From IMG/VR virus record IMGVR_UViG_2627854066_000006: 44,766 nt of DNA. The stretch is one strand, 5' to 3'. This DNA is from a virus (Duplodnaviria; Heunggongvirae; Uroviricota; Caudoviricetes). This document shows, in pieces, positions 27,047 through 30,213 of this stretch; within the stretch, counting starts at the first letter, position 1; each line of letters opens with the position of its first letter. The notes under the pieces were generated by a model. That model did no database searches, was not told where the DNA came from, and was given only the letters and a program-made list of their open reading frames with translations. The position numbers and the translations under genes were made by a program.

Positions 27047-27096
27047 ATGTCCTCTAATTTTGAGCGTTCGCAACTGACGAAAATTATGATTTCGTC
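27047..27096 (+). pseudogene. Major tail protein, 5' fragment (first 16 codons) cut off by IS66-family insertion
   Basis: AGGAG RBS then ATG; MSSNFERSQLTKIMISS... runs straight into the IS left inverted repeat. Confidence 0.7.
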
Positions 27097-27177
27097 GTAA
27101 GCGTCGTCTCAGCACCGTCTGGCAGATCCTGAAATTCCTGAGAGAATAGTGGACACCAAATATGGTGGACGCTATCC

Positions 27178-27582
27178 ATGAAATCATTAACCGCAGTGCG
27201 TAAAAAAAGCCCTAATTATCCCGTTGAGTTCAAAATCAAAATGGTTGAACTCTCGCATCGACCAGAGATCTCCGTAGCGCAACTCGCTCGTGAGCATGGG
27301 ATCAACGATAATTTGCTGTTCAAGTGGCGCCAGTACTGGCGCGAAGGAAAACTACGTCCTCCTTCAACAACAGAAAACAACGTGCCTGAGCTGCTCCCGA
27401 TAACACTTGATGCCGAAGATGTTGTCCCTACAACCTCCCCCCGGTCACAACCTGTAGCTACTGCGACACCTGAATCACTCAATATCAGCTGTGAAGTGAC
27501 GTTCCGGCACGGATCACTCCGTCTGAATGGTGCCATCAGTGAAAATATCCTGAACCTGCTGATACGGGAGCTCAAACGTTGA
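27178..27582 (+). CDS. IS66-family accessory protein TnpA (orf1)
   Basis: 134 aa, first gene of the three-gene IS66 arrangement. Confidence 0.75.
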   Translation: MKSLTAVRKKSPNYPVEFKIKMVELSHRPEISVAQLAREHGINDNLLFKWRQYWREGKLRPPSTTENNVPELLPITLDAEDVVPTTSPRSQPVATATPESLNISCEVTFRHGSLRLNGAISENILNLLIRELKR

Positions 27583-27926
27583 TCCCATTACCATCAGGGA
27601 CAAAGATCTGGCTGGTCGCTGGCATCACCGATATGAGAAACGGCTTCAACGGCCTGGCGGCAAAGGTGCAGACGACGCTGAAAGACGATCCGATGTCAGG
27701 TCACGTTTTTATCTTCCGTGGGCGTAATGGCAGTCAGGTAAAGCTCCTCTGGTCTACCGGCGATGGACTGTGTCTGCTGACCAAACGGCTGGAGCGCGGC
27801 CGCTTCGCCTGGCCGTCAGCCCGGGATGGCAAAGTGTTCCTCACACCGGCACAGCTGGCGATGCTGCTGGAAGGTATCGACTGGCGGCAGCCTAAAAGAC
27901 TGCTTACGTCCCTGACTATGTTGTAA
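27579..27926 (+). CDS. IS66-family accessory protein TnpB (orf2)
   Basis: 115 aa, overlapping orf1 by 4 bp; MIPLPSGTKIWLVAGITDMRNGFNGLA is typical of IS66 orf2. Confidence 0.75.
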   Translation: MIPLPSGTKIWLVAGITDMRNGFNGLAAKVQTTLKDDPMSGHVFIFRGRNGSQVKLLWSTGDGLCLLTKRLERGRFAWPSARDGKVFLTPAQLAMLLEGIDWRQPKRLLTSLTML

Positions 27927-27974
27927 GCCTCTTTATCCTGGTCGACGCTGAATGAGCCTGGTAATATACCCGGT

Positions 27975-29513
27975 ATGAGCAGCTCACTTCCTGACGATAT
28001 CAATGCACTGAAACGTCTCCTTGCCGAACAGGAGGCGCTGAACCGTGCCCTGCAGGAAAAGCTGAACGAGCGTGAACGCGAAATAGACCATCTGCAGGCA
28101 CAGCTGGATAAGCTGCGCCGGATGAACTTCGGCAGCCGCTCGGAAAAAGTCTCCCGTCGTATCGCACAGATGGAAGCTGACCTGAAGGCACTTCAGAAAG
28201 AAAGTGATACCCTTACCGGTCGGGTTGACGACCCGGCCGTGCAGCGCCCGCTGCGTCAAACCCGCACCCGCAAACCGTTCCCCGAATCACTCCCCCGCGA
28301 TGAAAAACGGCTGCTGCCGGCAGCGTCATGCTGCCCGGAATGTGGAGGCTCGCTGAGCTATCTGGGTGAGGATGCCGCCGAACAGCTGGAGCTGATGCGC
28401 AGCGCCTTCCGGGTTATCCGGACTGTACGTGAAAAGCATGCCTGTACTCAGTGCGATGCCATCGTGCAGGCCCCCGCGCCTTCACGGCCCATCGAGCGGG
28501 GTATCGCAGGACCGGGGCTGCTGGCCCGCGTGCTGATCTCAAAGTATGCAGAGCACACCCCGCTGTACCGCCAGTCTGAAATGTACGGCCGCCAGGGCGT
28601 GGAGCTGAGTCGTTCACTGCTGTCGGGCTGGGTGGATGCATGCTGCCGGCTACTGTCACCGCTGGAAGAAGCGCTTCAGGACTATGTGCTGACTGACGGT
28701 AAGCTCCATGCTGATGACACGCCTGTCCCGGTGCTGTTGCCAGGCAATAAGAAAACGAAGACCGGGCGGTTATGGACCTACGTTCGTGACGACCGTAACG
28801 CCGGGTCAACGCTGGCGCCGGCGGTGTGGTTCGCTTACAGCCCGGACAGAAAAGGCATCCATCCGCAGACCCATCTTGCGGGGTTCAGTGGTGTACTGCA
28901 GGCGGATGCATACGCCGGGTTCAACGAGCTGTACCGGGATGGCCGGATAACGGAAGCCGCCTGTTGGGCTCACGCCCGCCGTAAAATCCACGATGTGCAC
29001 GTTCGCACCCCGTCAGCCCTGACGGAGGAAGCGCTGAAACGGATCGGCGAACTGTACGCCATCGAGGCAGAGATAAGGGGAATGACGGCGGAGCAGCGCC
29101 TTGCCGAACGTCAGTTGAAAACGAAACCGCTGCTGAAATCCCTGGAAAGCTGGCTGCGTGAAAAGATGAAAACCCTGTCGCGACACTCAGAACTGGCGAA
29201 AGCGTTCGCATACGCCCTGAACCAGTGGCCGGCGCTGACGTACTATGCAGATGATGGCTGGGCTGAGGCGGACAATAACATCGCTGAAAATGCGTTGCGG
29301 ATGGTCAGTCTGGGCCGCAAAAACTACCTGTTCTTCGGTTCGGATCATGGAGGAGAGCGGGGAGCGCTGCTGTACAGCCTGATCGGGACGTGCAAACTGA
29401 ACGGAGTGGAGCCAGAAAGCTACCTCCGCTATGTCCTTGACGTCATAGCCGACTGGCCGATAAACCGGGTCGGCGAACTGCTCCCCTGGCGCGTAGCACT
29501 GCCGACTGAATAA
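27975..29513 (+). CDS. IS66-family transposase TnpC
   Basis: 512 aa with N-terminal leucine-zipper-like region, CxxC pairs (CCPECGG, CTQCDA) and the DDE-containing core. Confidence 0.8.
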
Positions 29514-29550
29514 CACATCCCCGTCAATACGGTTCTTGCTGCACGCTTAC

Positions 29551-30213
29551 ATTTCGTCTGCACCGGTAACAGCAGAAACCCTGGATTCTGCCAGCTATCT
29601 TGGCCTGAGCTGTACAATCAAAGAGGTGCAGTTTACCGCAGGACAAAAGCAGGATATTGATGTCACCACGCTGTGTTCTGTTGAGCAGGAAAATATTAAC
29701 GGCCTTGGTGCCGCGTCAGAGATTTCCATGTCAGGCAACTTTTACCTCAATGCTGCCCAGAACGCGTTGCGCAGTGCCTATGACAATGACACCACGTATG
29801 GCTTTAAAGTTATTTTTCCGTCAGGCAACGGATTTACCTTTATGGCAGAGGTGCGTCAGCATACCTGGTCTGCAGGAACTAATGGTGTTGTGGCTGCAAC
29901 GTTTTCCCTGCGCCTGAAAGGTAAACCTGTGCTGACGACAGAGCCGCTGAAAGTGAAGGTCGATTTAAACAGCACGCTGCAGGTTTCTGCCGGAGCGAAA
30001 CTCGAAATGGTGGTTGAGGCTGCCGGTGGTGTGCCGCCTTATTCTTATGTCTGGAAGAAAGGTAGTTCTCCTGTTTCCGGACAGACGGCGGCAACATTCA
30101 GTAAGGCATCAGCAGCATCAGGTGATGCCGGTGCGTATACCTGCGAGATTTCTGATTCAGCAAGCCCTGTTAACAAGGTGACCTCCACTTCCTGCACTGT
30201 TACCGTCAGTTAA
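29551..30213 (+). pseudogene. Major tail protein, 3' portion (C-terminal Ig-like domain) downstream of the IS66 insertion
   Basis: Continues in frame (...ISSAPVTAETLDSASYLGLS...) once the IS and one copy of the 8-bp duplication are removed; C-terminus ...AGAYTCEISDSASPVNKVTSTSCTVTVS is Ig-like. Confidence 0.7.

Follow-up and report, generated by a model that had tools for sequence, protein, structure and literature searches.

Does the transposable element that lies near the start of the major tail gene of this Escherichia coli prophage represent a genuine transposition event, and can the split gene still yield a tail protein? The DNA concerned is a 44,766-nucleotide stretch recorded as IMGVR_UViG_2627854066_000006, which we refer to as the window. 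It carries a lambdoid prophage with an HK97-type head, integrated at tRNA-Ser(CGA), next to mtfA, in an E. coli lineage associated with poultry. An earlier note on this DNA had described an IS66-family element that splits the major tail gene. We hold with great confidence that a single complete copy of ISEc22 transposed into the major tail gene of the prophage and thereby knocked it out, and nothing in the evidence contradicts this explanation.

Results

The inserted element occupies positions 27097 to 29550 on the plus strand and is a complete ISEc22 of 2454 bp, with a GC content of 57% versus 51% in the remaining window. Its termini read GTAAGCGT...ACGCTTAC. The left terminal inverted repeat (27097–27122, plus strand) begins with GTAAGCGT and the right one (29525–29550, plus strand) ends in ACGCTTAC, so that GTAAGCGT is read at both ends. 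The repeats are perfect over their first eight positions and imperfect beyond; over 26 positions, about 17 match. They start with 5′-GTAAGCG, a terminal motif that is a hallmark of the IS66 family. The length of 2454 bp and the GTAAGCG-type inverted repeats that had been read from the sequence before were thus both recovered.

All three open reading frames of the element are intact. The first, tnpA (27178–27582, plus strand), encodes an HTH accessory protein of 134 aa (Pfam HTH_Tnp_1, E = 9e-12), which scored 82.7 bits against the NCBIfam model for IS66-like TnpA (NF047595; cut-off 74). It is followed by tnpB, the IS66 Orf2 (27579–27926, plus strand), whose 115-aa product matched Pfam TnpB_IS66 (E = 1.6e-38, 131 bits) and NF033819 (119.9 bits, cut-off 50). 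The TTG start codon of tnpB overlaps the tnpA stop codon in the sequence TTGA. Downstream of both genes and on the same strand, tnpC (27975–29513) encodes a DDE transposase of 512 aa with leucine-zipper, zinc-finger and C-terminal modules (LZ_Tnp_IS66, zf-IS66, DDE_Tnp_IS66 and DDE_Tnp_IS66_C). The Pfam match of TnpC to DDE_Tnp_IS66 reached 357.9 bits (E = 5e-107), and its score against NCBIfam transpos_IS66 (NF033517) was 467.8 bits at a cut-off of 180.

Hundreds of E. coli copies annotated in RefSeq as ISEc22 match the element at 100% identity over its full 2454 bp. Furthermore, each of TnpA, TnpB and TnpC has an identical counterpart in RefSeq under the name ISEc22 or IS66; for TnpC this is the 'IS66-like element ISEc22 family transposase'. 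Together with the Pfam domains and the NCBIfam equivalogs above cut-off, this nucleotide identity upholds the earlier assignment to an IS66-family element with tnpA-tnpB-tnpC. ISEc22 is listed in ISfinder; the name was applied here at a nucleotide identity of at least 95% and a length of 2454 bp, both of which were found with the RefSeq copies rather than with the ISfinder reference. The identification rests on the RefSeq annotation together with what has been published on the length, the family and the size of the target duplication of ISEc22. Specifically, ISEc22 was reported to be an IS66-family element of 2454 bp (PMC5001619) with a target duplication of 8 bp (PMC4048246). In length, 8-bp duplication and tnpA-tnpB-tnpC order, no difference between ISEc22 and the window element was detectable. 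The IS679 and IS66 prototypes share the three-ORF layout, the overlap of the tnpA stop with the tnpB start, the DDE-type TnpC, the GTAAGCG termini and the 8-bp duplications, whereas their lengths and sequences differ. Han et al. are reported to have tested transposition of these prototypes by experiment in 2001. ISEc22 is common in E. coli: 2192 of 5426 genomes had a copy that spans 80% or more of the element, with a median of 3 places per genome. With its three reading frames and both ends intact, and with identical copies at many sites, the copy in the window is apparently, if putatively, an active one.

The element is flanked by two identical copies of the octamer ATTTCGTC, at 27089–27096 on the left and at 29551–29558 on the right (both plus strand), in agreement with the perfect 8-bp direct repeats that the earlier note had reported. 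The octamer is present in a single copy in intact alleles. As a word it is not rare per se, with four occurrences in the window versus about 1.6 expected; its weight stems from the fact that both copies abut element termini that were defined independently. Indeed, the same ISEc22 termini were found at 12 independent insertion sites, this one included, and every one of these sites has a perfect 8-bp repeat of its own; the chance of such a repeat at one site is 1 in 65,536.

At its 5′ end, the interrupted major tail (tail tube) gene retains a fragment from 27047 to 27096 on the plus strand, which consists of the ATG, 16 codons in all and 2 nt, after which the IS begins. The first base of the IS, a G, completes codon 17 (TCG, Ser), and IS bases 2–4 form a TAA stop codon. 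The truncated product is therefore a peptide of 17 residues, MSSNFERSQLTKIMISS. The start at 27047, on which the proposed insertion point of 16 codons into the gene depends, was upheld: it is preceded at 6 nt by the Shine-Dalgarno sequence AGGAG, and PGAP and other phage annotations begin the gene at the equivalent ATG. The annotation of phage Evi uses an in-frame ATG further upstream (26996), which was ruled out as the start by an indel between the two codons. Phages 733R4 and 569R6 have a run of seven T residues here and the others have six, and this 1-nt difference breaks the frame.

The 3′ part of the gene (29559–30213, plus strand) comprises codons 17–234 and the stop codon, and with them the presumed tube domain as well as an Ig-like domain at the C-terminus. 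When the IS and one repeat copy were excised in silico, a frame of 234 aa without internal stops was restored, as had been predicted. Many E. coli genomes have an uninterrupted site that matches the excised sequence at 100% identity over 800 nt, and the identity of the excised sequence to induced phages, including Evi, phi467 and vB_EcoM-606R7, is 95–99.5%. The repaired protein differs by 1 aa from the intact protein annotated in strain SCU-115; against the phage Evi protein the difference is 5 aa.

That the target is the major tail gene was confirmed by its full-length match (residues 1–234) to PHROG 158, major tail protein (E = 3.9e-108), and by its place between gp17 and the chaperone and tape-measure genes. 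In the window, gp17 (tail completion) lies at 26643–26987, the chaperone ORF at 30213–30599 and the tape-measure gene at 30939–34172, and annotated relatives show the same order of the tail module. The PHROG 158 match, the C-terminal Ig-like domain and the position between the completion gene and the G/T chaperone are shared with major tail proteins of the lambda gpV and HK97 types. The Pfam matches of the repaired protein to lambda-like tail tube families stayed below the gathering scores (Phage_TTP_11, 22.5 bits with a cut-off of 28.4; Phage_tail_2, 20.4 bits with a cut-off of 23.8). Among solved structures, sequence searches returned no relative of this N-terminal domain, the matches being to the Ig-like domain only.

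Conceivably, the gene could have survived its interruption. A chimeric ORF of 225 aa (29536–30213, plus strand) begins at a TTG that lies in the right inverted repeat and stays open up to the natural stop codon of the tail gene, and PGAP calls it from 29527 as an intact 'phage tail protein' of 228 aa (WP_032348506.1), not as a pseudogene. The right end of the IS would then provide an in-frame start at either of these positions, and a remodelled tube protein, in which MLHAYI replaces the first 17 residues, would be made by read-through transcription and would still build tails. Since the IS is read in the direction of the phage late operon, transcripts could indeed cross it, and low-level translation of the chimeric ORF could follow. 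We nevertheless consider it very unlikely that functional tails result. The TTG is not preceded by a Shine-Dalgarno sequence, as opposed to the AGGAG at the native start, the start codon called by PGAP at 29527 is ATA, and no outward-facing promoter-like site was found on the plus strand near the right end of the IS. Moreover, lambda-like tails require the tube protein at very high copy number. Among all the intact relatives that were aligned, the first 17 codons, which the chimera would lack, show no variation in DNA sequence; they also lie inside the PHROG 158 profile. Lastly, several carriers of the insertion have acquired added lesions in virion-assembly genes, namely an IS91-family element in the portal gene, an IS903B and an IS3-family element, which fits a prophage freed from selection to form virions. 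Returning to the knockout, the cut after 17 residues and a 3′ ORF without a ribosome-binding site or promoter-like site suggest that the tail tube protein is almost certainly not made, and we regard the chimeric ORF as an annotation by-product.

The identical junction is present in E. coli E7 and GPEC1258 (poultry). The window is 99.95% identical to the E7 sequence; it has an extra IS91-family element of 1.7 kb and six private contractions of 1–2 nt in G/C homopolymers. The window was therefore not taken to be E. coli E7 itself. These contractions suggest an error-prone long-read assembly, which raises the question of whether the junctions could be an artefact, with a repeated IS misplaced by the assembler. 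This is extremely improbable. The same junctions occur in assemblies from independent projects (E7, GPEC1258, GCA_027274835, GCA_027278845 and GCA_949767895), and both were confirmed in every long contig fetched; short-read contigs terminate inside the IS and show an identical right junction. In addition, a perfect 8-bp duplication marks true transposition and is not produced by misassembly. Scarcely any probability attaches either to a rearrangement mediated by the IS, be it a deletion, an inversion or recombination between copies, that would have joined halves of tail genes that were not original neighbours: the several ISEc22 copies per E. coli genome permit homologous recombination between them in principle, but the match of the joined flanks to the empty site, with exactly one ATTTCGTC, effectively refutes it, and on either side the genes follow the order seen in intact phages.

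Of the assemblies fetched, at least 12 contain the junction, and 29 indexed blocks of public assemblies contain the exact chimeric ORF. About 900 complete genomes have the gene region, and just 2 of them carry the insertion; these are the only two junction records among 5,426 complete genomes, and neither has the portal insertion. Strain E7 carries the tail-gene insertion without the further lesions of other carriers. Among carriers of the junction, no substitutions were found in 5.2 kb of flank, which points to one recent event that was inherited clonally. The earlier view that the insertion is fairly recent is supported by the identical IS copies, the unchanged flanks and the low number of carrier genomes, with the qualification that the insertion is common to a clone of at least 12 assemblies. 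This clone has since gained further, differing IS insertions: in the window an IS91-family element sits in the portal gene, and other carriers have an IS903B directly upstream of the small terminase gene or, in the head-tail connector region, an IS3-family element.

Prophage tail genes hold 6 of the 12 independent ISEc22 sites examined, and two of these six are separate insertions, in unrelated strains, into the major tail gene that is split here. This could be read as a sign that ISEc22 hits the tail modules of lambdoid prophages above chance, or that such hits are preferentially kept, which we consider unlikely. The sample of sites is small, three of the six tail-gene sites came from searches biased to this context, and relaxed selection on prophage virion genes accounts for the pattern without any preference. 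If true, it would mean that prophages are 'grounded' while their cargo persists, in this case including a PDC-M18-like candidate defence pair. A 'TTTCNTC'-like target consensus, seen in blast flank extensions (sites ATTTCATC and CTTTCGGA), was rejected as it came from matches selected by flank similarity; in an unbiased set of ISEc22 sites there was no 8-bp target consensus, and perhaps a mild A/T richness.

Discussion

Judging from what is established for DDE transposases and the IS66 family, TnpC, aided by TnpA and TnpB, would have made staggered cuts 8 bp apart in the target, and repair of the gaps would have produced the ATTTCGTC duplication. Because the 3′ 218 codons are separated from the ribosome-binding site and the start codon, no tail tube protein would be produced, and the prophage would at best yield tail-less particles. 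We infer that the insertion brings about a loss of function in a decaying prophage and serves no function of its own, and that it would have been inherited clonally before the IS91-family insertion into the portal gene seen in this window.

The near-identical uninterrupted relatives of this prophage are inducible phages (Evi, phi467 and the vB_Eco series). An accumulation of IS elements in virion genes is likewise known from cryptic lambdoid prophages, such as Rac, Qin and DLP12 of K-12 and the IS629-decayed prophages of O157. Compared with these, the prophage in the window is far less decayed, as its virion module is complete except for the IS insertions. Like them, it keeps its early region and cargo, including dicB, ydfABC, hokD and the PDC-M18-like candidate pair.

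With regard to annotation, the 3′ fragment fused to the IS stands in RefSeq as an intact 'phage tail protein' of 228 aa under WP_032348506.1. We regard this entry as an annotation error, for which a pseudogene label would be fitting.

The insertion is real, its reported coordinates are all right and it was correctly interpreted, and it is ordinary and already known: the ISEc22 hit is an unremarkable step in prophage decay that is present and annotated in public genomes. Its significance beyond annotation is little. It would account for the inability of an otherwise complete prophage to form tailed particles, and it allows the loss of the tail to be dated relative to the later IS insertions. 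The junction between ISEc22 and the tail gene is, in addition, a clean clonal marker for this poultry-associated E. coli lineage.

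An ISEc22 copy with a perfect target duplication

The element occupies 27097-29550 (2454 bp), starts with GTAAGCGT and ends with ACGCTTAC. On the + strand, the octamer ATTTCGTC could be read directly from the sequence on either side of it, at 27089-27096 and 29551-29558. This is the arrangement described in the earlier note, which had reported an IS66-family element of this length with inverted-repeat ends, the genes tnpA-tnpB-tnpC and perfect 8-bp repeats, and on re-inspection the sequence was as described. The two termini are identical at their first 8 positions and match at about 17 of the first 26. 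As a word, the octamer is not rare on its own (4 occurrences in the window against 1.6 expected); its copies are meaningful here because both abut termini that are fixed independently by other copies of the element.

All three ORFs lie on the + strand and are intact. The first (27178-27582; 134 aa) carries the Pfam domain HTH_Tnp_1, the second (27579-27926; 115 aa) TnpB_IS66, and the third (27975-29513; 512 aa) LZ_Tnp_IS66, zf-IS66, DDE_Tnp_IS66 and DDE_Tnp_IS66_C, while the TTG start of the second overlaps the stop of the first as TTGA. All three encoded proteins scored above cut-off for the corresponding curated NCBIfam equivalogs (IS66 TnpA, TnpB and transposase). Over all 2454 bp, the element is 100% identical to many copies on E. 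coli chromosomes and plasmids, which RefSeq labels 'IS66-like element ISEc22 family transposase' alongside tnpA and tnpB; 2192 of 5426 complete genomes contain a copy at ≥80% coverage. ISEc22 is listed in published tables as an IS66-family element of 2454 bp (PMC5001619), and an 8-bp direct repeat has been described for one ISEc22 insertion (PMC4048246).

Furthermore, we compared 12 independent ISEc22 insertion contexts from both biased and unbiased sources. Exactly the same termini as in the window were present in all 12, each with its own perfect 8-bp duplication (ATTTCGTC, GAGGCTGC, ATTTCATC, CTTTCGGA, AAACAGGG, GGAGATAT, TATTAATG, CTTCATTC, CAACAAAA, AAAATACG, TATTATCT and ACTAATCT), and no target consensus was found among these duplications. 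In view of the shared termini and duplications, the complete identity, the intact ORFs and the published match, the element is, as judged from its sequence, an ordinary complete copy of the named IS ISEc22, and probably an active one.

In E. coli strain 10 (NZ_CP048330.1; L003, 4616-7070), ISEc22 has independently inserted into the orthologue of the major tail gene. This second insertion is located at the Ig-like domain boundary, in the same orientation as in the window and with the duplication GAGGCTGC, and was also encountered in NZ_OZ501679.1 and NZ_CM176575.1. Further ISEc22 copies, located in other prophages, reside in tape-measure genes in L004 and L026, in a gene for tail fibre assembly in L005 and in a tail K gene in L019.

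The interrupted gene encodes the major tail protein

The start codon of the tail gene is ATG 27047, with AGGAG 6 nt before it, and the IS entered after 16 codons plus 2 bases, the distance originally noted. IS base 1 completes a Ser codon and the next three IS bases form the stop TAA, so that the 5′ part of the split gene specifies only the 17 residues MSSNFERSQLTKIMISS. The in-frame ATG at 26996, which is the start in the annotation of phage Evi, was rejected, since related phages display a 1-nt T6/T7 indel between both ATGs. In the 59-nt gap from the tail completion gene to the major tail gene start, we observed a terminator-like hairpin (27008-27030, +; CCCGCCGCTGGCGGG followed by T6), which is the same in all aligned relatives save for T6 versus T7. 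This hairpin may tune the ratio of tube to completion protein, or may terminate transcription unless Q antitermination overrides it.

In silico removal of 27097-29550 and one repeat copy restored, as predicted, a single frame, namely a 705-nt ORF of 234 codons with 0 internal stops. The rebuilt empty site of 800 nt was 100% identical to uninterrupted sites in many E. coli genomes, with 898 genomes matching at ≥80% coverage, and 95-99.5% identical to sequenced phages, among them Evi, phi467 and the vB_Eco series. Annotations of the matching phages name the gene product major tail protein or subunit and place the gene between a tail completion protein on one side and tail assembly chaperones and the tape measure on the other. 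The repaired protein, which has an Ig-like domain at its C-terminus, differs from the annotated intact protein by 1 residue in strain SCU-115 and by 5 residues in Evi. Its full-length match to PHROG 158, 'major tail protein' (E 3.9e-108), agrees with the phage annotations and with the gene identity first proposed.

Consequences for the tube protein

ISEc22 would have entered through DDE transposition of the usual kind, in which the target was cut with an 8-bp stagger and then repaired. The sole possible start for the 3′ part of the gene is a TTG within the right inverted repeat, at 29536; we found no Shine-Dalgarno sequence upstream of this codon and no promoter-like site on the + strand near it. 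The tube protein, which is needed in large amounts, would thus not be made, and the prophage would no longer be able to form tailed particles. Since the IS is oriented like the late operon, the tail genes 3′ of it might still be transcribed by read-through, which does not rescue the tube protein.

PGAP treats the 3′ part of the tail gene fused to the right IS end (29527-30213) as intact, calling it a 228-aa 'phage tail protein' without a pseudogene flag (WP_032348506.1, in NZ_CP104523.1 and NZ_CM142782.1). The PGAP start at 29527 lies within the IS inverted repeat, where the window has the codon ATA, and we regard this call as an annotation artefact. Conceivably, a functional tube protein with a remodelled N-terminus is produced from this chimeric ORF, but it would be without any expression signal and would fit poorly with the further lesions in virion genes of the genomes sharing the junction. 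Two further readings are excluded: rearrangement mediated by the IS, since the empty site matches perfectly, and misassembly of the junctions, since independent assemblies agree and the target duplication is present.

Distribution and age of the insertion

Among complete E. coli genomes, the exact junction was present in strains E7 (broiler, USA) and GPEC1258 (chicken, USA). In public assemblies, 29 indexed blocks contain the exact chimeric ORF 3′ of the IS. Both junctions were found in every long carrier contig examined; short-read carrier contigs end within the IS and have the same right junction. The ISEc22/tail-gene allele is thus already in public genomes and annotated there. Over 5.2 kb 3′ of the IS, 11 of 12 carriers showed 0 substitutions relative to the window and the other showed 1, and the IS copies were identical in all compared carriers except the draft assembly L008 (5 nt shorter). 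These near-zero substitutions and identical copies point to one recent insertion event followed by clonal inheritance. The 'recent' of the earlier note is therefore right by sequence divergence, with the qualification that the insertion predates the diversification of a clone, because the carriers differ in later events: IS903B directly upstream of the small terminase gene in GPEC1258, an IS3-family element in the head-tail connector region in GCA_949767895, and a 1713-bp IS91-family element in the portal gene in the window. Together, the finding is real and its interpretation correct: this is a known IS with known behaviour in a target type where such insertions are common.

The IS91-family element (21312-23024) encodes a transposase on the minus strand (21482-22690; Y2_Tnp and Zn_Tnp_IS91; NCBIfam transpos_IS91, 311.9 bits) and is 99.9% identical to E. 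coli plasmid copies. It splits the portal gene into halves at 20494-21311 and 23025-23448, with no target duplication at the element. Since the E7 and GPEC1258 prophages, otherwise 99.95% identical, are without it, this sequence comparison identifies the insertion as a later, second knockout. Relative to E7, the window also displays six 1-2-nt G/C homopolymer contractions (6494, 12475, 18689, 20391, 30721 and 30749). As written, these result in frameshifts in the genes for the large terminase, the tail assembly protein T (65 aa versus 96) and others; the two in gene T (30721 and 30749) occur only in the window compared with all other carriers. Being uniform in direction and context, the contractions are probably long-read sequencing errors and not biology.

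Prophage layout and a candidate defence cargo

The prophage is integrated at tRNA-Ser(CGA) (892-981), its attachment site, beside mtfA, which runs into the left edge at the window start. The integrase gene (1034-2059, minus) is annotated in RefSeq as frameshifted in E7, and the window sequence equals that of E7 across the gene. In E7, the yersiniabactin island lies directly past tRNA-Asn. The integrase is followed by an early region resembling those of Rac and Qin, which contains dicB, ydfABC and hokD. Next come the Q antiterminator, two cargo genes and the lysis genes, ahead of a head module of the HK97 type and a lambda-like tail module extending to the tail fibre assembly gene. At the end of the tail chaperone ORF (30585-30611), directly before the T ORF, the run GTTAAAAAAAAGTAG is a likely slippery site, at which the programmed -1 frameshift conserved in lambda-like tails (G/GT-type) would occur.

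The cargo, with the Q antiterminator on one side and the holin genes on the other, consists of gene A (13621-14661, +; 346 aa) and gene B (14662-15171, +; 169 aa), which show very strong matches to PDC-M18 A (E 1.6e-196) and PDC-M18 B (E 3.4e-75), respectively, of a PADLOC candidate anti-phage system. Both proteins are 'hypothetical' in RefSeq, and no Pfam domain was found in either. This PDC-M18-like candidate cargo may explain the retention of the defective prophage.
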